Of a stretch of DNA of 10,027 bases, positions 1 to 10,027 are shown in pieces; position 1 is the first letter of the stretch, and the number at the start of each line of letters is the position of its first letter. Location: IMG/VR virus record IMGVR_UViG_2541047945_000003; one strand, 5' to 3'. Source of the DNA: a virus (taxonomy: Duplodnaviria; Heunggongvirae; Uroviricota; Caudoviricetes). The notes under the pieces are model-generated. The model saw nothing but the letters and a program-made list of their open reading frames with translations, was not told where the DNA came from and made no database searches. The translations under genes were made by a program, and so were the position numbers.

Positions 1-573
1 CAGAATATGGCGGCGATGCTGACCGGCAGTGAGCAGAACTGGCGCAGCTTCACCCGTTCCGTGCTGTCCATGATGACAGAAATTCTGCTTAAGCAGGCAA
101 TGGTGGGGATTGTCGGGAGTATCGGCAGCGCCATTGGCGGGGCTGTTGGTGGCGGCGCATCCGCGTCAGGCGGTACAGCCATTCAGGCCGCTGCGGCGAA
201 ATTCCATTTTGCAACCGGAGGATTTACGGGAACCGGCGGCAAATATGAGCCAGCGGGGATTGTTCACCGTGGTGAATTTGTCTTCACAAAGGAGGCAACC
301 AGCCGGATTGGCGTGGGGAATCTTTACCGGCTGATGCGCGGCTATGCCACCGGCGGTTATGTCGGTACACCGGGCAGCATGGCAGACAGCCGGTCGCAGG
401 CGTCCGGGACGTTTGAGCAGAATAACCATGTGGTGATTAACAACGACGGCACGAACGGGCAGATAGGTCCGGCTGCTCTGAAGGCAGTGTATGACATGGC
501 CCGCAAGGGTGCCCGTGATGAAATCCAGGCACAGATGCGCGATGGTGGTCTGTTCTCCGGAGGTGGACGATGA
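1..573 (+). CDS. H: Tail tape measure protein H, C-terminal fragment (5' end lies outside the window)
   Basis: Frame-1 ORF is open from base 1 and stops at TGA 571-573. Gly/Ala-rich translation ending ...RDGGLFSGGGR matches the lambda gpH C-terminus as I recall it. Its stop overlaps the M start (ATGA), the standard lambda H-M junction. Confidence 0.88.
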   Translation, partial: QNMAAMLTGSEQNWRSFTRSVLSMMTEILLKQAMVGIVGSIGSAIGGAVGGGASASGGTAIQAAAAKFHFATGGFTGTGGKYEPAGIVHRGEFVFTKEATSRIGVGNLYRLMRGYATGGYVGTPGSMADSRSQASGTFEQNNHVVINNDGTNGQIGPAALKAVYDMARKGARDEIQAQMRDGGLFSGGGR

Positions 574-899
574 AAACCTTCCGCTGGAAAGTGAAACCCG
601 GGATGGATGTGACATCGGCTCCTTCCGTCAGGGAGGTGCGCTTTGGTGATGGCTATTCCCAGCGTGCGCCTGCCGGGCTGAACGCTGACCTGAAAACGTA
701 CAGCGTGACGCTGTCTGTCTCCCGTGAGGAGGCCACGGCGCTGGAGTCGTTTCTGGCTGAGCACGGGGGCTGGAAGGCCTTTCTGTGGACGCCGCCTTAT
801 GGCTACAGGCAGATAAAGGTGACCTGCGCAAAATGGTCGTCGCAGGTCAGTATGTTGCGTGTTGAGTTCAGCGCAGAGTTTAAACAGGTGGTGAACTGA
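570..899 (+). CDS. M: Minor tail protein M
   Basis: 109-aa ORF (MKTFRWKVKPGMDV...) with the length and sequence of lambda gpM from memory. ATG overlaps the H stop and its own stop overlaps the L start (TGATG at 897-901). Confidence 0.9.
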   Translation: MKTFRWKVKPGMDVTSAPSVREVRFGDGYSQRAPAGLNADLKTYSVTLSVSREEATALESFLAEHGGWKAFLWTPPYGYRQIKVTCAKWSSQVSMLRVEFSAEFKQVVN

Positions 900-1597
900 T
901 GCAGGATATCCGGCAGGAAACACTGAATGAATGCACCCGTGCGGAGCAGTCGGCCAGCGTGGTGCTCTGGGAAATCGATCTGACAGAGGTCGGTGGAGAA
1001 CGTTATTTTTTCTGTAATGAGCAGAACGAAAAAGGTGAGCCGGTCACCTGGCAGGGGCGACAGTATCAGCCGTATCCCATTCAGGGGAGTGGTTTTGAAC
1101 TGAATGGCAAAGGCACCAGTACGCGCCCCACGCTGACGGTTTCTAACCTGTACGGTATGGTCACCGGGATGGCGGAAGATATGCAGAGTCTGGTCGGCGG
1201 AACGGTGGTCCGGCGTAAGGTTTACGCCCGTTTTCTGGATGCGGTGAACTTCGTCAACGGAAACAGTGACGCCGATCCGGAGCAGGAGGTGATCAGCCGC
1301 TGGCGCATCGAGCAGTGCAGCGAACTGAGCGCGGTCAGTGCCTCTTTTGTACTGTCCACGCCGACGGAAACGGACGGCGCTGTTTTTCCGGGACGTATCA
1401 TGCTGGCCAACACCTGCACCTGGACCTATCGCGGCGATGAGTGCGGTTATCACGGTCCGGCAGTCGCGGATGAATATGATCAGCCGACGTCCGATATCAC
1501 GAAGGATAAATGCAGCAAATGCCTGAGCGGTTGTAAGTTCCGCAATAACGTCGGCAACTTTGGCGGCTTCCTTTCCATTAACAAACTTTCGCAGTAA
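899..1597 (+). CDS. L: Minor tail protein L
   Basis: 232-aa ORF (MQDIRQETLNECTRAEQSASVVLWEIDL...) matching lambda gpL in length and sequence from memory. The C-terminal Cys cluster (CSKCLSGC) is consistent with the known metal-binding tail of gpL. Start is coupled to the M stop. Confidence 0.9.
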   Translation: MQDIRQETLNECTRAEQSASVVLWEIDLTEVGGERYFFCNEQNEKGEPVTWQGRQYQPYPIQGSGFELNGKGTSTRPTLTVSNLYGMVTGMAEDMQSLVGGTVVRRKVYARFLDAVNFVNGNSDADPEQEVISRWRIEQCSELSAVSASFVLSTPTETDGAVFPGRIMLANTCTWTYRGDECGYHGPAVADEYDQPTSDITKDKCSKCLSGCKFRNNVGNFGGFLSINKLSQ

Positions 1598-1602
1598 ATA
1601 CC

Positions 1603-2346
1603 ATGACACAGACAGAATCAGCGATTCTGGCGCACGCCCGGCGATGTGCGCCAGCGGAGTCGTGCGGCTTCGTGGTAAGCACGCCGGAGGGGGAAAGATA
1701 TTTCCCCTGCGTGAATATCTCCGGTGAGCCGGAGGCGTATTTCCGTATGTCGCCGGAAGACTGGCTGCAGGCAGAAATGCAGGGTGAGATTATGGCGCTG
1801 GTCCACAGCCACCCCGGAGGTCTGCCCTGGCTGAGTGAGGCCGACCGGCGGCTGCAGGTGCAGAGTGATTTGCCGTGGTGGCTGGTCTGCCGGGGGACGA
1901 TTCATAAGTTCCGCTGTGTGCCGCATCTCACCGGGCGGCGCTTTGAGCACGGGGTGACGGACTGTTACACGCTGTTCCGGGATGCTTATCATCTGGCGGG
2001 GATTGAGATGCCGGATTTTCATCGCGGGGATGACTGGTGGCGTCACGGTCAGAATCTCTATCTGGATAATCTGGAGGCCACAGGGCTGTATCAGGTGCCG
2101 TTGTCATCAGCACAACCGGGCGATGTGCTGCTGTGCTGTTTTGGTTCATCGGTGCCGAATCATGCCGCCATTTACTGTGGTGACAGCGAGCTGCTGCACC
2201 ATATTCCTGAACAACTGAGCAAACGAGAGAGGTACACCGACAAATGGCAGCGACGCACACACTCCCTCTGGCGTCACCGGGAATGGCACGCATCTGCCTT
2301 TACGGGGATTTGCAACGATTTGGCCGCCGCATCGACCTTCGTGTGA
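1603..2346 (+). CDS. K: Tail tip assembly protein K (MPN/JAMM plus NlpC/P60 two-domain protein)
   Basis: 247-aa ORF 6 nt after the L stop. The translation has a JAMM-type motif HSHPGGLPWLSEAD (H-x-H-x7-S-x2-D) and downstream Cys/His residues (DCYTL ... LLHH) consistent with an NlpC/P60 fold. The classical lambda annotation starts K at an internal Met (here ATG 1747, MSPEDW...); I prefer 1603 because a complete MPN domain needs the upstream residues. Confidence 0.85.
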   Translation: MTQTESAILAHARRCAPAESCGFVVSTPEGERYFPCVNISGEPEAYFRMSPEDWLQAEMQGEIMALVHSHPGGLPWLSEADRRLQVQSDLPWWLVCRGTIHKFRCVPHLTGRRFEHGVTDCYTLFRDAYHLAGIEMPDFHRGDDWWRHGQNLYLDNLEATGLYQVPLSSAQPGDVLLCCFGSSVPNHAAIYCGDSELLHHIPEQLSKRERYTDKWQRRTHSLWRHREWHASAFTGICNDLAAASTFV

Positions 2347-2915
2347 AAACGGGGGCTGAAGCCATCCGCGCACTTGCCACACAGCTCCCGGCGTTTCGTC
2401 AGAAACTGAGCGACGGCTGGTATCAGGTACGGATTGCCGGGCGGGACGTCAGCACGTCCGGGTTAACGGCGCAGTTACATGAGACTCTGCCTGACGGCGC
2501 TGTGATTCATATTGTTCCCAGAGTCGCCGGGGCCAAGTCAGGGGGCGTATTCCAGATTGTTCTGGGGGCTGCCGCCATTGCCGGATCATTCTTTACTGCC
2601 GGAGCCACCCTTGCAGCATGGGGGGCAGCCATTGGGGCCGGTGGTATGACCGGTATCCTGTTTTCTCTCGGTGCCAGTATGGTGCTCGGTGGTGTGGCGC
2701 AGATGTTGGCACCGAAAGCCAGGACGCCCACGGCAGCAAGTACAGATAACGGCAAACAGAACACCTATTTCTCCTCACTGGATAACATGGTTGCCCAGGG
2801 CAATGTTCTGCCCGTTCTGTACGGTGAAATGCGCGTGGGGTCGCGGGTGGTCTCTCAGGAGATCAGCACGGCAGACGAAGGGGATGGTGGTCAGGTTGTG
2901 GTGATTGGTCGCTGA
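2244..2915 (+). CDS. I: Tail assembly protein I
   Basis: 223-aa ORF (MAATHTLPLASPGMARICLYGDLQRFGRRIDLRVKTGAEAIRAL...) matching lambda gpI from memory, with a Gly/Ala-rich hydrophobic central segment. It overlaps the 3' end of K by about 100 nt in another frame, as in lambda. Confidence 0.9.
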   Translation: MAATHTLPLASPGMARICLYGDLQRFGRRIDLRVKTGAEAIRALATQLPAFRQKLSDGWYQVRIAGRDVSTSGLTAQLHETLPDGAVIHIVPRVAGAKSGGVFQIVLGAAAIAGSFFTAGATLAAWGAAIGAGGMTGILFSLGASMVLGGVAQMLAPKARTPTAASTDNGKQNTYFSSLDNMVAQGNVLPVLYGEMRVGSRVVSQEISTADEGDGGQVVVIGR

Positions 2916-2932
2916 TGAAAAACGTTTATGTG

Positions 2933-2953
2933 AAACCGCCTCCGGGCGGTTTT
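2933..2953 (+). terminator. Short GC hairpin with a weak T-tract in the I-J intergenic region (possible attenuator or RNA structure)
   Basis: AACCGCC-TCCG-GGCGGTT inverted repeat (7-bp stem, 4-nt loop) followed by TTGTCGTTT. The U-tract is interrupted, so this is weak as an intrinsic terminator. Confidence 0.3.
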
Positions 2954-2974
2954 GTCGTTTATGGAGCGTGAGGA

Positions 2975-5900
2975 ATGGGTAAAGGCAGCAGTAAGGGGCA
3001 TACTCCGCGCGAAGCGAAGGACAACCTGAAGTCCACGCAGTTGCTGAGTGTGATCGATGCCATCAGCGAAGGGCCGGTTGAAGGTCCGGTGGATGGATTA
3101 AAAAGCGTGCTGCTGAACAGTACGCCAGTGCTGGACAGTGAGGGGAATACCAACATCTCCGGCGTCACGGTGGTGTTCCGGGCCGGTGAGCAGGAGCAGA
3201 CACCGCCGGAGGGATTTGAATCCTCCGGCTCCGAGACGGTGCTGGGTACGGAAGTGAAATACGACACGCCGATCACCCGGACCATCACGTCGGCAAACAT
3301 TGACCGACTGCGTTTTACCTTCGGCGTGCAGGCACTGGTGGAAACCACCTCAAAGGGGGACAGGAATCCGTCGGAAGTCCGCCTGCTGGTTCAGATACAG
3401 CGTAATGGTGGCTGGGTGACGGAAAAAGACATCACCATTAAGGGCAAAACCACCTCGCAGTATCTGGCCTCGGTGGTGGTGGGTAACCTGCCGCCGCGCC
3501 CGTTCAGTATCCGGATGCGCAGGATGACGCCGGACAGCACCACAGACCAGCTGCAGAACAAAACGCTCTGGTCGTCATACACCGAAATCATCGATGTGAA
3601 ACAGTGCTACCCGAACACGGCACTGGTCGGCGTGCAGGTGGACTCGGAGCAGTTCGGCAGCCAGCAGGTGAGCCGTAATTATCATCTGCGCGGGCGCATT
3701 CTGCAGGTGCCGTCGAACTATAACCCGCAGACGCGGCAATACAGCGGTATCTGGGACGGAACGTTTAAGCCAGCATACAGCAACAACATGGCCTGGTGTC
3801 TGTGGGATATGCTGACCCATCCGCGCTACGGCATGGGGAAACGTCTTGGTGCGGCGGATGTGGACAAATGGGCGCTGTATGTCATCGGCCAGCATTGCGA
3901 TCAGTCGGTGCCGGACGGTTTTGGCGGCACGGAGCCGCGCATCACCTGTAATGCGTACCTGACCACACAGCGCAAGACGTGGGATGTGCTCAGTGATTTC
4001 TGCTCGGCGATGCGCTGTATGCCGGTATGGAACGGGCAGACGCTGACGTTCGTGCAGGACCGACCGTCGGATAAGGTGTGGACCTATAACCGCAGTAATG
4101 TGGTGATGCCGGATGATGGTGCGCCGTTCCGCTACAGCTTCAGCGCCCTGAAGGACCGCCATAATGCCGTTGAGGTGAACTGGATTGACCCGAATAACGG
4201 CTGGGAGACGGCGACAGAGCTTGTGGAGGACACGCAGGCCATTGCCCGTTACGGTCGTAGCGTCACGAAGATGGATGCTTTTGGCTGTACCAGCCGGGGG
4301 CAGGCACATCGCGCCGGGCTGTGGCTGATTAAAACAGAACTGCTGGAAACGCAGACCGTGGACTTCAGCGTGGGTGCCGAAGGGCTTCGCCATGTACCGG
4401 GCGATGTCATTGAAATCTGCGATGATGACTATGCCGGTATCAGCACCGGCGGGCGCGTGCTGGCGGTAAACAGCCAGACCCGGACGCTGACGCTCGACCG
4501 TGAAATCACGCTGCCATCTTCCGGCACCACGCTGATAAGCCTGGTTGACGGGCAGGGGAGTCCGGTCAGCGTGGAGGTTCAGTCCGTCACCGACGGCGTG
4601 AAGGTAAAAGTGAGCCGTGTTCCTGACGGCGTTGCCGAGTACAGCGTGTGGGGGCTGAAGCTGCCGACGCTGCGCCAGCGCCTGTTCCGCTGTGTGAGTA
4701 TCCGTGAGAACGATGACGGTACGTATGCCATCACTGCCGTGCAGCATGTACCGGAGAAAGAAGCCATCGTGGATAACGGGGCGCACTTTGACGGTGACCA
4801 GAGCGGCACGGTGAATGGTGTCACGCCGCCAGCAGTGCAGCATCTGACCGCAGAAGTCACTGCAGACAGCGGGGAATACCAGGTGCTGGCGCGCTGGGAT
4901 ACGCCGAAGGTGGTGAAGGGGGTGAGCTTTATGCTTCGCCTGACCGTGGCAGCGGATGACGGCAGTGAGCGGCTGGTCAGCACGGCCCGGACGACGGAAA
5001 CCACATACCGCTTCACGCAACTGGCGCTGGGAAACTACAGGCTGACAGTCCGGGCGGCAAATGCCTGGGGGCAGCAGGGCGATCCGGCGTCGGTATCGTT
5101 CCGGATTGCCGCACCGGCAGCGCCATCTCGGATTGAGCTGACGCCGGGCTATTTTCAGATAACCGCCACGCCGCATCTTGCCGTTTATGATCCGACGGTA
5201 CAGTTTGAGTTCTGGTTCTCGGAAAAGCGGATTACCGATATCAGGCAGGTTGAAACCACAGCCCGCTATCTTGGCACGGCGCTGTACTGGATAGCTGCCA
5301 GTATCAATATTAAGCCGGGCCATGATTATTATTTTTACGTTCGCAGTGTGAACACCGTTGGCAAATCGGCATTCGTGGAGGCCGTCGGTCGGGCGAGCGA
5401 TGATGCGGAAGGTTACCTGGATTTTTTCAAAGGCCAGATAACCGAATCCCATCTCGGCAAGGAGCTGCTGGAAAAAGTCGAGCTGACGGAGGATAACGCC
5501 AGCAAACTGGAGGAGTTTTCGAAAGAGTGGAAGGACGCCAACGATAAATGGAATGCCATGTGGGGCGTCAAAATTGAGCAGACCAAAGACGGCAAACATT
5601 ATGTCGCGGGGCTTGGCCTCAGCATGGAGGATACGGAGGAAGGCAAACTGAGCCAGTTCCTGGTTGCCGCTAACCGTATCGCGTTTATTGACCCGGCAAA
5701 CGGGAATGAAACGCCGATGTTTGTGGCGCAGGGCAACCAGATATTCATGAACGAAGTGTTCCTGAAGTATCTGACGGCTCCCACCATTACCAGTGGCGGT
5801 AATCCTCCGGCATTTTCCCTGACACCGGACGGGCGGCTGACGGCGAGAAATGCTGATATCAGCGGTAACGTGAATGCGAACTCCGGGACGCTCAATAATG

Positions 5901-6388
5901 TCACGGTAAATGAAAACTGTACGATTAAGGGCATGCTGGAGGCGAACCAGGTCAGAGGTGACTTCGTTAAAACTGTATCCAAATCATTCCCGAAAAAGGC
6001 TGGTACGTGGGGTAACACGGAAACACCAAACGGGACGGTTACAGTCACCATTTACGATGATCATAACTTTGACCGCCAAATCATTATTCCGCCCATTATT
6101 TTTAACGGTGTGGCGTATGACGATCCGGGGAGCGGTAATAACCCGGGAGGTACGCGATACACGGGTTATGGTTTTGAAGTTCGCAAAAATGGCGTATTAA
6201 TCGCATCCAGAGAAACTAAAGGAGCCATTCCCGGTAGTTACAGTGCGGTTATTGATATGCCGAGTGGTGGTGGTAACGTCACTCTGGAGTTTAAGATTTT
6301 CCAGAAAGGCAATCAGGGCGCAGGTAACATCACAGACTGTACGGTGATTGTGACCAAAAAAGCTGCTTCCGGTATCAGTATCCGTTGA
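2975..6388 (+). CDS. J: Central tail fiber / host specificity protein J, with a divergent C-terminal receptor-binding region
   Basis: 1137-aa ORF preceded by AGGA 1 nt upstream of the ATG. The first ~975 residues ([34 protein letters not shown]...) match lambda gpJ closely from memory. The last ~160 residues (from about [14 protein letters not shown]... to ...[10 protein letters not shown]) do not match my recollection of the lambda J C-terminus. Confidence 0.93.
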
Positions 6389-6408: not shown

Positions 6409-6436
6409 GGGCGCCAGCAATGGCGCCTTTTTTATT
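6409..6436 (+). terminator. Rho-independent terminator-like hairpin between J and stf
   Basis: GGCGCC (6410-6415), loop AGCAAT, GGCGCC (6422-6427), followed directly by TTTTTTATTT. It lies 21 nt after the J stop. Confidence 0.6.
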
Positions 6437-6448
6437 TGTGGAGTGAGT

Positions 6449-8803
6449 ATGGCAGTACAGATTTCAGGTGTGCTGAAAGATGGTGCGGGAAAACCAATAC
6501 AGAACTGCACTATTCAACTGAAGGCAAAGCGTAACAGCACCACGGTACTGGTGAACACGGTGGCCTCTGAAAATCCGGATGAAGCCGGGCGTTACAGCAT
6601 GGATGTTGAGTATGGCCAGTACAACGTCACCCTGCTGGTTGAAGGTTTTCCGCCTTCACATGCCGGGACCATCACCGTGTATGAAGATTCTAAGCCGGGG
6701 ACGCTGAATGATTTTCTCGGTGCCATGACGGAAGAGGATGTCATGCCGGAGGCATTACGCCGTTTTGAGGCTATGGTGGAAGAAGCAGCACGTAACGCTG
6801 AAGCTGCCTCTCAGAGCGCAGCGGCGGCAAAGAAATCCGAAACTGCAGCGGCATCATCGAAGAACGCGGCGAAAACCTCAGAAACGAATGCAGCTAACAG
6901 CGCACAGGCGGCAGCGGCCTCGCAGACTGCATCGGCAAATTCCGCGACAGCAGCTAAAAAATCAGAAACCAACGCGAAAAACAGCGAGACAGCAGCAAAG
7001 ACGAGCGAAACCAACGCAAAGTCCAGCCAGACGGCAGCGAAAACCAGCGAAACGAATGCTAAAGCCAGTGAAACTGCGGCAAAAAACAGCCAGGCTGCAG
7101 CAGCTGAAAGCGAGAGCGCAGCAGCCGGTTCTGCGACTTCAGCAGCTGGATCAGCAACTGCTGCGGCTAACAGCCAGAAAGCTGCGAAGACGAGTGAAAC
7201 TAACGCAAAGTCCAGCCAGACGGCAGCGAAGACCAGCGAAACGAATGCCAAAGCCAGCGAAACTGCGGCAAAAAACAGTCAGGATGCAGCGGCCCAAAGC
7301 GAGAGTGCCGCAGCTGGTTCTGCAAGTGCGGCAGCTAATAGCCAAAAAGCTGCAAAAACCAGTGAAACTAACGCAAAGACGAGTGAAACAAAAGCAGCAG
7401 CCAGCGAGATAGAAGCAACGTCAGCCGCAACAAGAGCAGAGAATGCAGCCCGGATTGCAGAAGATGCCGCTGATCCTGCTTCAGTCCCTCCGCTTCCTGA
7501 TATCTGGCTACCCTTGAATGATTCTCTGGAAGCGATAACAGGGTATGCCCCGGGCTATAAAACAATAACCATCGGCAGTGATGAAATAACAATGCCTGTT
7601 AATGGCATATGCCAATTTAGCCGCGCTTCATCAGCAACGTATATTGATAAGTCCGGGCATATTACCGTGGCAGGGAATAACGTTCCTCGTTTTGAAAAAT
7701 ATGGTTTGCTGATAGAGAATCAGCGAACAAACATGTTCGTAAATAGTTTTAATCCTGATGCGTGGAATAAAAGCGGTGGTATATCTGTAACATCATCAAC
7801 AGATGAATTTGAGTTTAAATATGGACGTTTCACAGTAGGAAGTGAGATAGCAGGAACGACAACAGGGAGAAATATATGCACAGTTGCTGGTAATAAAGGC
7901 ATAGATGTGACTGGCGATGATCAGTACAGTAAAGGTCCGTATGTTACCGCGTCGTTCAGGGTAAGAAGTGATCTCAATGTTCGCGCACGTATCCGTTTTG
8001 AACGGTATAACTCGGAAGGATACACTTTCCTTTGTGACGCCTATTTGTCATTACAGACTCATGAACTACAAATTACGGGTGGTAATGCCCAGCTATTAAC
8101 AGCAAACTTTGAAATCGACCCTGGTAGTGGATGGATATATTTTCAGGCAACACTGAAATGTCTGCCAGAATGGGGAATGGTTGGTACGCAGCTGCAAATT
8201 GCAGCCGACAGAGCAGTGGGGGCTTTTGCAACAGGTGACTGGATAGAAGTAACCACCCCGCAATTCGAGTATGGTGCTTGTGCAACTTCCTTTATCATAA
8301 CGACAACAGAGCCAGCGACTCGTGCATCAGATTTATGTAAATTTCCGCTGATGAAAAATATGTATACCATGCCTTTTACGTTCATGGTGGAAGTCCATAA
8401 AAACTGGTTTATTTCTCATAATGCTGCACCGCGTGTCATTGATTCAGAAAATCACCAGTCCGGAGGCCCATTTATTATGGGGTTTGGTTCTTCTGGAACT
8501 ATCAGTCAGGATGGTTATTCGTATTGCGATATAGGCGGGGCTAACCGGCGTGTATATGAGTCATGCGGAGTAAGAGATCTCGTTATGGGATTCAGGGTTA
8601 AGGCTGACGGCATGACATGCTCATTTGCAAATAAGAATATAAGCACTGAAACCAAAACAGTATGGAAATATATTCGTGAAGCAGCCGTGATTCGTATCGG
8701 GGGGCAAACGACGACAGGATTACGACACCTTAATGGTCATATAAAAAACCTCCGTTTCTGGAACAGAGCATTGTCAGATACGCAGCTTAAGGAATACGTA
8801 TAA
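6449..8803 (+). CDS. stf: Side tail fiber protein (Stf-like): lambda-type N-terminal domain, repeat shaft, divergent C-terminal putative receptor-binding domain
   Basis: ATG 6449 with GGAG 5 nt upstream (the ORF track begins at an in-frame GTG at 6443). The N-terminus MAVQISGVLKDGAGKPIQNCTIQLKAKRNSTTVLVNTVASENPDEAGRYSMDVEYGQY... resembles the lambda Stf N-terminal domain from memory. The middle is an Ala/Lys/Ser/Glu/Thr-rich repeat region (KTSETNAK units). The C-terminal ~430 aa is lower-GC and ends ...IKNLRFWNRALSDTQLKEYV, which resembles the terminal strand of LamG/concanavalin-A-like jelly-roll domains. Confidence 0.85.
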   Translation: MAVQISGVLKDGAGKPIQNCTIQLKAKRNSTTVLVNTVASENPDEAGRYSMDVEYGQYNVTLLVEGFPPSHAGTITVYEDSKPGTLNDFLGAMTEEDVMPEALRRFEAMVEEAARNAEAASQSAAAAKKSETAAASSKNAAKTSETNAANSAQAAAASQTASANSATAAKKSETNAKNSETAAKTSETNAKSSQTAAKTSETNAKASETAAKNSQAAAAESESAAAGSATSAAGSATAAANSQKAAKTSETNAKSSQTAAKTSETNAKASETAAKNSQDAAAQSESAAAGSASAAANSQKAAKTSETNAKTSETKAAASEIEATSAATRAENAARIAEDAADPASVPPLPDIWLPLNDSLEAITGYAPGYKTITIGSDEITMPVNGICQFSRASSATYIDKSGHITVAGNNVPRFEKYGLLIENQRTNMFVNSFNPDAWNKSGGISVTSSTDEFEFKYGRFTVGSEIAGTTTGRNICTVAGNKGIDVTGDDQYSKGPYVTASFRVRSDLNVRARIRFERYNSEGYTFLCDAYLSLQTHELQITGGNAQLLTANFEIDPGSGWIYFQATLKCLPEWGMVGTQLQIAADRAVGAFATGDWIEVTTPQFEYGACATSFIITTTEPATRASDLCKFPLMKNMYTMPFTFMVEVHKNWFISHNAAPRVIDSENHQSGGPFIMGFGSSGTISQDGYSYCDIGGANRRVYESCGVRDLVMGFRVKADGMTCSFANKNISTETKTVWKYIREAAVIRIGGQTTTGLRHLNGHIKNLRFWNRALSDTQLKEYV
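6998..7354 (+). repeat. In-frame tandem duplication (~189-bp unit, two near-identical copies) inside the stf shaft, within a longer degenerate ~27-nt periodic region (~6820-7400)
   Basis: Copy A 6998-7186 and copy B 7187-7354 align almost base for base (aagacgag[c/t]gaaac[c/t]aacgcaaagtccagccagacggcagcgaa...ggttctgc). Copy B lacks about 21 nt near its 3' end. Protein level: KTSETNAKSSQTAAKTSETNAKASETAAKNSQ[A/D]AAA[E/Q]SESAAAGSA... occurs twice. Confidence 0.8.
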
Positions 8804-9072
8804 TGCGGGATATAACATTACGATTCGATAACAGAGAACAGTTTAACGCAATTGTATATGACAGTGGCCTGTTCAGTCTTGAAGAAGAAAATGGGGTTCT
8901 TGTTGATGTTATTGGCTGCATTATTGATTACGAGGAGCCAGAAAACGAAAGATGTACAGGCATTGATCGCGGTGGTTTTTTCGTAAACATGAGGATTGTT
9001 GATGGCAGTAAAAACATATCTTCTTTAATGCCTTTCATTACGACAGATCAGCATGTAAGGACATGGGCTTAA
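8803..9072 (+). CDS. Hypothetical protein (89 aa), start overlapping the stf stop; possible non-canonical fiber-associated factor or moron
   Basis: ATG 8803-8805 overlaps the stf TAA (TAATG), with AAGGA 9 nt upstream. AT-rich, acidic translation (MRDITLRFDNREQFNAIVYDSGLFSLEEENGVLVDVIGCIIDYEEPENER...). I recognise no family, and it does not resemble the canonical lambda Tfa as I recall it. Confidence 0.5.
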   Translation: MRDITLRFDNREQFNAIVYDSGLFSLEEENGVLVDVIGCIIDYEEPENERCTGIDRGGFFVNMRIVDGSKNISSLMPFITTDQHVRTWA

Positions 9073-9084
9073 TGGAGTAAGACA

Positions 9085-9810
9085 ATGGTTACAAAAACAG
9101 TAATTCCTGATGACATCAAAACGCTAAAATCCGATGTTAGTAAACTAAAAACTGATCAAGGAAGCTATGCAACAAAATCATATGTAGACAATAAAACAAC
9201 ATGGAATAGTTATTGCAATGTAATCTATGATCAAAAGGCATTGCCGACCACTGGAACTATATTTAGCGGTAAGATTCACTTGTCAAATAAGACTGGTGAA
9301 ACGGAAAACGCTTATAGTGATATATATACCAGAAAAAATATTGATGGTACTAAAGATACAATGACGAGGATCGTCACACATAACGGGACAAAAGGTATCT
9401 TTTGGGACTTTAGTGATCTTTACGGAGGAACTTTAATTTTCCCTGGCACTGCTGGTTATTTGAAAATGGGTAAATGCCTCATGTCCTATGGGGATCGTGT
9501 AGATAATGCCCTGATTAAATTTGATTATACAGACACACTACAGATCAAATATGCTAATCATGGTTCGACCATGACACTAAACACACAGGGAACCGCTCAC
9601 GCTGGCGTTACTGCTAAATTGTGGGGCAATTCTAGCCGTCCGGTTGTTTATGAAGTTGGTGTAGATGGTGGGGCTTTTATATTCTTCGGTCAAAAACAAA
9701 CAGATGACACATATGCATTTGCTGTTAATGGTGCATGTCAAGCGACCGCATTTAACCAGATAGACTGGCCCCCTGAATCACCAGACAACCAATATCACTT
9801 ATTTAAGTGA
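9085..9810 (+). CDS. Hypothetical protein (241 aa as read), 3' end fused to or truncated by IS2; native sequence ends at about codon 225
   Basis: ATG 9085 with GGAG 7 nt upstream. AT-rich ORF with an N-terminus ([31 protein letters not shown]) reminiscent of fibre-type proteins, then a Gly/Thr/Tyr-rich region. From nt 9761 the frame continues through the IS2 terminal repeat ([16 protein letters not shown]) to TGA 9808-9810, so the C-terminus is IS-derived. Confidence 0.55.
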
Positions 9811-9811
9811 T
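9794..9811. promoter_or_regulatory. Perfect palindrome in the IS2 terminal region upstream of insC (candidate OrfA operator / promoter element)
   Basis: ATCACTTA-TT-TAAGTGAT is a perfect 8-bp inverted repeat with a 2-bp spacer, about 40 nt upstream of the insC ATG. The IS2 orfA-proximal end is known to carry the orfA promoter and repressor binding; the exact site assignment is my inference. Confidence 0.35.
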
Positions 9812-9851
9812 AGTCTTAATACTAGTTTTTAGGCTAGTCATTGGAGAGCAG

Positions 9852-10027
9852 ATGATTGATGTCTTAGGACCGGAGAAACGCAGACGGCGTACCACACAGG
9901 AAAAGATCGCAATTGTTCAGCAGAGCTTTGAACCAGGGATGACGGTCTCCCTCGTTGCCCGGCAACATGGTGTAGCAGCCAGCCAGTTATTTCTCTGGCG
10001 TAAGCAATACCAGGAAGGAAGTCTTAC
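9852..10027 (+). CDS. insC: IS2 transposase OrfA (InsC), N-terminal 58 codons; 3' end outside the window
   Basis: Translation [58 protein letters not shown] matches IS2 InsC from memory, including a helix-turn-helix-like segment. No stop codon before the window ends. Confidence 0.9.

Follow-up and report, generated by a model that had tools for sequence, protein, structure and literature searches.

The side tail fiber gene stf and the two open reading frames (ORFs) behind it, orf89 and orf241, lie at the tail operon's distal end in a 10,027-nt stretch of caudoviral DNA (IMG/VR record IMGVR_UViG_2541047945_000003). This whole stretch is referred to as the window, and all three genes are on the plus strand. 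Positions 7340-9760 most likely represent the exchangeable distal part of a two-segment side tail fiber, acquired by recombination with coliphages of lower guanine-plus-cytosine (GC) content; in its full form this reading includes orf89 as the joint between the two segments. An earlier note, made from the sequence alone, had described the same region as an accessory module comprising a novel C-terminal domain of Stf and two uncharacterized ORFs, possibly moron or defense cargo. None of the three genes is a defense or moron gene. The ORFs described there (stf from 6443 or 6449 to 8803, orf89 8803-9072, orf241 9085-9810) hold, except that the end of orf241 is encoded by an insertion sequence, IS2, and is not native.

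The proximal fiber of the cassette is encoded by an intact stf (6449-8803), 784 aa from an ATG at 6449 in an ORF that opens with a GTG at 6443. The protein matches phrog_1419 over its full length (E=0) and is 99.9% identical to Stf of Escherichia phage PhiR11_1. Its N-terminal virion-attachment domain (6449-6841; PF08400, aa 3-133, E=6e-68) is common to lambda Stf, and this N-terminus also matches PDB 9E7M, a tail fiber protein with a 94-aa chain whose sequence corresponds to the lambdoid Stf N-terminus (E=6e-22). The gene is encoded directly after that of gpJ; by PF08400 and gene order it is a lambda-type stf. A shaft rich in Ala, Ser, Thr and Lys, of the SETNAK type, extends over 6842-7470 and was delimited by its translation and by nested 21-, 42- and 189-nt tandem repeats (TRF). 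Pfam domain searches of the window revealed neither a gp37-like C-terminal end nor a gene for Tfa (Caudo_TAP, PF02413).

The distal module of about 440 aa, StfC (7463-8800), sets in at about aa 300-340 of Stf. It was delimited by a hidden Markov model (HMM) match over Stf aa 341-786 with a score of 759 bits and is 45.5% identical to Gp22 of phage IrisVonRoten. It consists of a conserved linker, a beta-sandwich resembling carbohydrate-binding modules (CBM) and galectins, and a probable LamG-like end. The beta-sandwich (7709-8326, Stf aa 423-628) carries the NCBIfam domain NF048003, 'phage head spike fiber domain' (48.2 bits, cut-off 36). Used as a profile, StfC also matched PDB 6TB9, the RcGTA head spike fiber Rcc01080 (E=1.8e-9). 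The C-terminal strand region (8630-8788) shows a sub-threshold signature of Laminin_G_3, a ConA-like lectin family (PF13385, E=5e-4, 20.6 bits, cut-off 27.6). The signal covers the last ~50 aa, recurs in 18 of 31 homologues and falls where the confidence of the AlphaFold2 (AF2) model is low. No intramolecular chaperone was detected in StfC by Pfam domain searches. Homologues numbered 1,420 at E<=1e-5, and StfC is fused to three types of N-terminus: lambda-type (PF08400), P2/Mu-type (PF12571 and PF03406) and T5-type. With this distribution, the full-length phrog_1419 match and NF048003, the domain does not have the novelty once ascribed to it; by its sequence relationships it is a mobile fiber end.

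The third gene is present as a pseudogene. Positions 9085-9760 hold the 5' fragment, codons 1-225, of a distal tail fiber gene of 346 aa; they agree with the PhiR11_1 gene over 676 nt without a difference and cover positions 1-226 of the 346 in phrog_4563. The fragment comprises a conserved docking N-terminus (aa 1 to ~26) and the receptor-binding body. Compared with gp25 of Nonagvirus JenP1, annotated as 'tail fiber protein', protein identity is 81% for orf241 and 83% for the intact allele, and DNA identity is 85%. The intact PhiR11_1 protein matches phrog_4563 over its full length and carries Peptidase_S74 (PF13884, aa 227-278, E=2.7e-13), a domain that starts at the cleavage serine S227. 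No Pfam match to this domain was obtained for orf241. Identity of the window to PhiR11_1 (PV340547) is 100% over stf, orf89 and the first 225 codons of the third gene, and the order in that phage is J, stf, the 89-aa gene and the 346-aa gene. Over its whole 3' end, the window matches two chromosomes, those of E. coli LC-1302-2020 and MMC-J-0105, with 100% identity.

The truncation is caused by IS2. Its left end occupies 9761-10027 (plus strand), with the inverted repeat TAGACTGGCCCC, the start of insC/orfA at 9852, matches of 94-98% to IS2 and an annotated IS3-family transposase. The left copy of the target-site duplication, CCAGA, is located at 9756-9760, and in NZ_CP091756 the 1331-bp element is followed on the right by the same 5 bp, with 1336 bp including the duplication between the two junctions. 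Residues 226-241 of orf241 (16 residues) and its stop codon are encoded by IS2. The junction follows codon 225, one codon ahead of the Peptidase_S74 chaperone domain; as the element interrupts the gene one codon before S227, the fragment remaining there is not expected to form a folded trimer. The insertion constitutes a natural truncation, which predicts that the distal fiber cannot be made in functional form and that the prophage has lost it. The prophage would display at most the proximal, lectin-tipped fiber. In E. coli LC-1302-2020, a remnant of the distal fiber gene persists 3' of IS2 and is cut again ~20 nt before the stop codon by ISEc23 of the IS66 family. This doubly disrupted gene, with the remnant and ISEc23, lies downstream of the window (11391-14244 of the LC-1302-2020 locus). 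In strain CEA106S (NZ_CP166722.1, 832018-835614), the cassette was recovered by megablast in two pieces spanning ~1.3 kb more than the query, with an IS3-family transposase annotated beneath, which suggests an independent IS insertion somewhere within the cassette.

The three parts travel together, as a comparison of 21 loci shows (20 loci plus L020, a P2-like prophage). A gene of the orf89 family directly follows the StfC-ending gene in all 21 and abuts or overlaps its stop codon. In 18, the next gene opens with the docking N-terminus M-[VA]-T-x-T-x-IP-x-DI-x-x-LK. The distal fibers of these 18 loci measure 231-586 aa and differ in their receptor-binding parts, one (L014) being reduced to a truncated ORF of 64 aa. 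The order of large fiber, ~90-aa protein and second fiber is found in JenP1 (gp23-25), in Seuratvirus VogelGryff (gp22-24) and in the T5-like IrisVonRoten (gp22-24). It also occurs in the lambdoid phages PhiR46_1, PhiR47_1 and PhiR55_1, in IMG/VR contigs and in the P2-like prophage, which encodes an H-type fiber ending in StfC, a 92-aa protein, a distal fiber of 303 aa and a Caudo_TAP chaperone. Of 5,426 complete E. coli genomes, 722 matched the module in DNA to some extent, and at least 80% of it is present in 81. The first 26 aa of the distal fiber matched, among the matches listed, only records with full query coverage; those checked, e.g. EC104 and AKFV33, carry the split module. The shaft motif behind the docking peptide is internal in one-piece fibers such as LtfA of DT57C. 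The start of the distal fiber gene (9066-9190) is a short stretch conserved across many alleles, as would be expected of a recombination linker or a docking segment. From JenP1, StfC and orf89 have diverged far more than the distal fiber has, which indicates that the cassette itself is mosaic.

The closest described counterparts are IrisVonRoten (Bas32, Tequintavirus) and JenP1. Gp22, Gp23 and Gp24 of IrisVonRoten have the same three-gene order as the window. Gp22 is 45.5% identical to Stf aa 132-786, Gp23 is 33% identical to orf89, and Gp24 has the same N-terminal docking peptide and ends in an intramolecular chaperone. With AlphaFold-Multimer, Gp22 has been modeled as a proximal fiber with a galectin-like C-terminal domain to which the distal fiber Gp24 attaches (Humolli et al., 2025, PMC11990801). 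The Stf anchor in the window is lambda-type (PF08400), whereas that of Gp22 is T5-type. The window-type distal fiber has 346 aa compared with 574 aa in Gp24; its aa 29-336 align to Gp24 aa 264-571 with ~24% identity. T-shaped fibers with two receptor-binding domains (RBD) combine a Gp12-like RBD1 with a T5-like RBD2, and this RBD1 is absent from the window-type distal fiber. Unlike IrisVonRoten, the window phage is temperate and its distal fiber is broken by IS2. JenP1 gp23 is 39.7% identical to Stf over the full length, PF08400 included, gp24 is 29% identical to orf89, and gp25 carries the same S74 chaperone as the intact distal fiber. In contrast to the window phage, JenP1 is virulent, and its genome is modified. 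By all sequence criteria, the region would be a lambdoid representative of this IrisVonRoten/JenP1-type cassette. It is neither a T-shaped dual-RBD fiber nor a Tfa system nor a defense system.

The second gene, orf89 (8803-9072), encodes a small acidic alpha/beta protein of phrog_1361 (E=2e-30), a family annotated as 'unknown function'. Its start overlaps the stf stop codon (TAATG). No match was obtained in Pfam, NCBIfam, PDB or PADLOC, and no likeness in sequence or fold to Caudo_TAP/Tfa, gp35 or any known chaperone family was found. A single-sequence search returned only four fragments, while a profile built from phage homologues retrieved 375 homologues. The 120 listed of these are almost all 91-93 aa long (exceptions 96 and 150 aa), and every named one is a 'hypothetical protein'. 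An exhaustive HMM scan of 1.84 billion proteins yielded 107 representative clusters. Apart from shorter fragments, members of the family are about 85-125 aa long and stand alone, and no genuine Rosetta-stone fusion was present in these clusters. Long apparent fusions were PKD, TPR or choline-binding repeat proteins matched through several weak stretches and were rejected as spurious. A scan of one genome per species detected no relatives. The AF2 model (pLDDT 69) shows a small beta-alpha-beta-beta-alpha sandwich without an informative structural neighbor. The allele of the PhiR11_1, R47 and R55 lineage is an outlier, 29-38% identical to all other members, which are 34-100% identical to each other. 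It has 89 aa compared with 91-93 aa elsewhere, and the StfC allele paired with it likewise ranks among the more divergent ones. Virion proteomics covering a small protein of this type was not found in the literature; the study on phage mar004NP2 identified eight proteins only.

In the proposed architecture, the Stf trimer would be anchored at the tail tip by its N-terminus, and its lectin-like end would bind O-antigen or capsule as a surface glycan. That end would also be the socket for the distal fiber, which may dock by the N-terminal peptide M-x-T-x-T-x-I-P-x-D-I-x-x-L-K, with orf89 as a small joint, or adaptor, that completes the proximal-distal connection. The distal fiber would trimerize with the help of its C-terminal chaperone, which would afterwards be cleaved off, and could add a second receptor specificity. 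Auto-cleavage of C-terminal chaperones of the Peptidase_S74 type is established for endosialidases and T5 pb1. In T4, the small protein gp35 is encoded between the proximal and the distal fiber genes and forms the hinge, an analogy of position and function only. Tentatively, phrog_1361, StfC and the docking peptide together might constitute a universal plug-and-socket for interchangeable distal fibers across lambda-like, T5-like, Queuovirinae and P2-like phages, in which orf89 would work like the gp35 hinge, yet be unrelated to it.

The role of orf89 is the least settled part. A structural joint is favored over an assembly chaperone specific for StfC, at a confidence just short of even, as distal fibers have their own chaperones, the RcGTA spike fiber was made from a fiber-only construct and the docking peptide co-occurs with the module. 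The chaperone of the distal fiber is either its own intramolecular S74 domain or, in the P2-like locus, the product of a separate Caudo_TAP gene after the fiber, which indicates that the distal fiber brings its own chaperone. Several observations weigh against the two-segment reading with its joint. The putative joint role is drawn from position and co-occurrence. The gene occupies the position of lambda tfa, and its product is small and acidic, as assembly chaperones are. Three of the 21 loci (ev207, i.e. L009, with L016 and L018) retain orf89 without a distal fiber, a pattern that agrees better with a partnership with StfC than with a purely adaptor role. These three form a single lineage, with 89-96% identity in orf89. 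Sequence identities of orf89 correlate with those of StfC and of the distal N-terminus to the same degree (r=0.50), and linkage alone suffices to explain this; co-divergence was rejected as a way to choose between the two partners. The AF2 model of StfC is confident for the central beta-sandwich only (aa 100-273 of 447), and since the last 170 residues are unmodeled, the LamG assignment rests on the sub-threshold Pfam signal. In the published model of IrisVonRoten, Gp24 attaches to Gp22, and Gp23 is not discussed (PMC11990801).

The competing explanation drawn from several of these points takes orf89 as a non-structural assembly chaperone of the StfC end that is analogous in function to lambda Tfa, P2 G or T4 gp38/gp57 and is released after folding, so that the distal fiber docks directly on Stf. 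It is a serious possibility, though a rather doubtful one. The gene is translationally coupled to stf at the tfa position, persists with StfC where the distal fiber is missing, and StfC has no intramolecular chaperone of its own; the silence of the IrisVonRoten complex model on Gp23 agrees as well. Against a chaperone, orf89 has no likeness to Caudo_TAP or any chaperone family, and CBM domains of the beta-sandwich type as a rule fold on their own. The P2-like prophage has a genuine Caudo_TAP gene besides an orf89 homologue, and the docking N-terminus was matched only alongside the module in the records checked. The RcGTA spike fiber, which contains the homologous domain, was made in E. coli from a construct encoding the tagged fiber alone (PMC10218006).

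The acquisition by recombination is documented by base composition and by comparison of alleles. GC content in sliding windows, GC and third-codon-position GC (GC3) per segment, and the single best change point were determined for the 10,027-nt window. Sliding GC content is 0.55-0.63 over positions 1-5400, 0.41-0.45 over 7600-8800 and 0.35-0.38 over 8800-9600. The tail genes at 7-2915 have a GC content of 0.582 (GC3 0.59), J 0.566 (GC3 0.67, per-segment calculation) and the repeat shaft of stf at 6800-7336 0.564. The values fall to 0.435 (GC3 0.36) in stf 7475-8800, 0.393 (GC3 0.35) in orf89 and 0.382 (GC3 0.30) in the native part of orf241. A single change point is best placed at position 7555 (z = 13), within stf. 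With lambda, stf is identical in DNA no further than nt 356, and nt 1-356 are the sole stf DNA common to ~230 lambdoid and Stx phages; some phages share the gene to nt 473 or 630. Identity to ev207, PhiR46_1 and PhiR49_1 continues to nt 894 (window 7336) and is lost beyond. The end of DNA identity to other lambdoid stf alleles at 7336 and the change point at 7555 delimit the mosaic junction zone (7336-7555, no strand). The homologous loci of JenP1 and IrisVonRoten have GC contents of 0.42 and 0.40, and window 9121-9682 is 84.8% identical in DNA to JenP1 gp25. Sequence of the kind found in lower-GC phages has taken the place of the receptor-binding end of stf and of the genes downstream of it. 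The GC drop, the position of the break inside stf and an origin in a lower-GC source, all proposed in the earlier note, are borne out by these data.

Horizontal replacement is favored by the drop in GC3, the end of identity at 7336, the 85% DNA match to Nonagvirus and the presence of StfC on unrelated N-termini. An explanation of the lower GC content by amino-acid and codon constraints of fiber proteins, without any replacement, is very improbable. Receptor-binding parts of fibers are often compositionally odd, and the C-terminus of J dips too (GC 0.50). However, GC3 goes from 0.59-0.72 to 0.30-0.36, identity to sister lambdoid stf alleles stops at 7336, the distal fiber gene is 85% identical in DNA to that of a virulent Nonagvirus, and StfC occurs on unrelated fiber N-termini. 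The J dip itself concerns the C-terminal ~1 kb, the receptor-binding end of the central fiber (5389-6388), with GC 0.50 and GC3 0.42 compared with 0.59 and 0.72 in the remaining gene; this suggests a second, separate mosaic replacement.

That orf89 and orf241 are accessory cargo (moron, superinfection exclusion, defense or host-range modifier) and not virion components is most improbable and largely refuted: low GC content, the end-of-operon position and the lack of an annotated function for orf89 in any library speak for it, but orf241 is the N-terminal two thirds of a tail fiber (phrog_4563, S74 in the intact allele, 81% to JenP1), and the genes also occupy the locus for lateral tail fibers in strictly virulent T5-like and Queuovirinae phages. 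PADLOC-DB models assigned no family to StfC, orf89, orf241, the intact fiber or the downstream 95-aa ORF. Promoter-like sites showed no excess inside the module, where orf89 and orf241 have neither promoter nor terminator of their own and the intergenic gaps are -1 nt (stf/orf89) and 12 nt (orf89/orf241). Rfam searches gave no family in the window. Instead of uncharacterized cargo, the two ORFs are a truncated tail fiber gene (phrog_4563) and a fixed member of the fiber locus (phrog_1361). The refutation that the earlier note named for its own reading, homology of both ORFs to ordinary lambdoid fiber assembly genes, holds about halfway: both are conserved tail-fiber-locus genes, yet neither is a classical lambda tfa. 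Of the candidacy of the region for an undescribed function, only the role of orf89 remains; the stf end and orf241 drop out.

Other systems resemble the cassette in part. The T5-like phages DT57C and DT571/2 have branched, L-shaped fibers of LtfA and LtfB (Golomidova, 2016, PMC4728585; Ayala, 2023, PMC10713586). As proposed here, two fiber proteins are involved, of which the first alone is anchored to the tail and the second docks by a conserved N-terminus. Each of LtfA and LtfB has an O-antigen receptor-binding region, which widens the host range. The two descriptions of DT57C (PMC4728585, PMC10713586) give gp108 and gp107 as adjacent and mention no small intervening gene. A StfC domain is absent from LtfA, which has a chaperone domain of its own. 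The docking peptide of the window distal fiber was not matched in DT57C; the downstream shaft motif alone is in common. For phage vB_Eco_mar004NP2, 'two genes upstream of ltfB' without orthologues in a sister phage have been reported (PMC6563131), an observation that fits the cassette reading. The RcGTA protein Rcc01080/GhsB shares the homologous lectin-like beta-sandwich region and binds capsular polysaccharide. It is a stand-alone protein of 325 aa on the base of the capsid spike, whereas the window module forms the end of a trimeric tail fiber. To our knowledge, neither an orf89-like partner nor a second fiber exists for it. Binding of tagged Rcc01080 to R. capsulatus cells was far stronger when these carried a capsule than when they lacked it (PMC10218006). 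With lambda Stf-Tfa, the window shares the Stf N-terminal domain and the position after J, while the C-terminal half of its Stf has no relationship to either lambda Stf or gp37. Judged by homology, the region belongs to the lambda Stf family by its N-terminus only.

As a discovery, the cassette carries little weight. The sequence is public as PhiR11_1, all three genes fall into existing PHROG families and the homologous fiber of a BASEL phage has already been modeled. The analysis removes a false lead for the mining of defense and moron genes in the region after stf. It also shows one host-range cassette moving among temperate lambdoids, P2-like prophages and virulent T5-like and queuosine-modified phages, and this mobility bears on host-range prediction and engineering. 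The remaining question is orf89, a small and strictly linked protein, whose role is cheap to test since PhiR11_1 plates on K-12.

Upstream, the fiber genes are bounded by a strong terminator-like hairpin, GGGCGCCAGCAATGGCGCC (6409-6428, plus strand), with an 8-bp stem of six GC pairs followed by the T-run TTTTTATTTG, between the J stop codon and the stf start. The lom gene, present between J and stf in PhiR46_1 and PhiR47_1, is absent there. The shaft repeats (6946-7396) show an extreme AT skew of ~0.59 and produce long spurious ORFs in other frames (6738-7412 on the plus strand, 6811-7251 on the minus strand). Minus-strand and alternative-frame ORFs in 6738-8385 were rejected as by-products of the repeats and of the long plus-strand genes. 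In the RefSeq/PGAP annotation of NZ_CP091756 (6750-9104 of the locus, window 6449-8803), the intact stf is split into a pseudogene fragment and a 'phage head spike fiber domain-containing protein'. The pseudogene call is probably an artefact of the repeat region, as the ORF is continuous and nearly identical to PhiR11_1 Stf.

Further genes follow outside the window. A hydrophobic protein of 95-97 aa (phrog_1443, 'unknown function') is encoded after the distal fiber in PhiR11_1 (L001 8769-9056), R46 and R47. In ev207 (L009 7670-7963), L016 and L018, its 97-aa form stands directly after orf89. Possibly it is a true moron or a membrane protein closing the fiber locus. Three minus-strand genes are located downstream of the fiber locus in PhiR11_1 and the LC-1302-2020 prophage (L001 9302-13158; L005 14878-18734). 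They encode an FRG-domain protein and hypothetical proteins of 254-272 aa and ~350 aa, and are better accessory or defense candidates than anything in the window.

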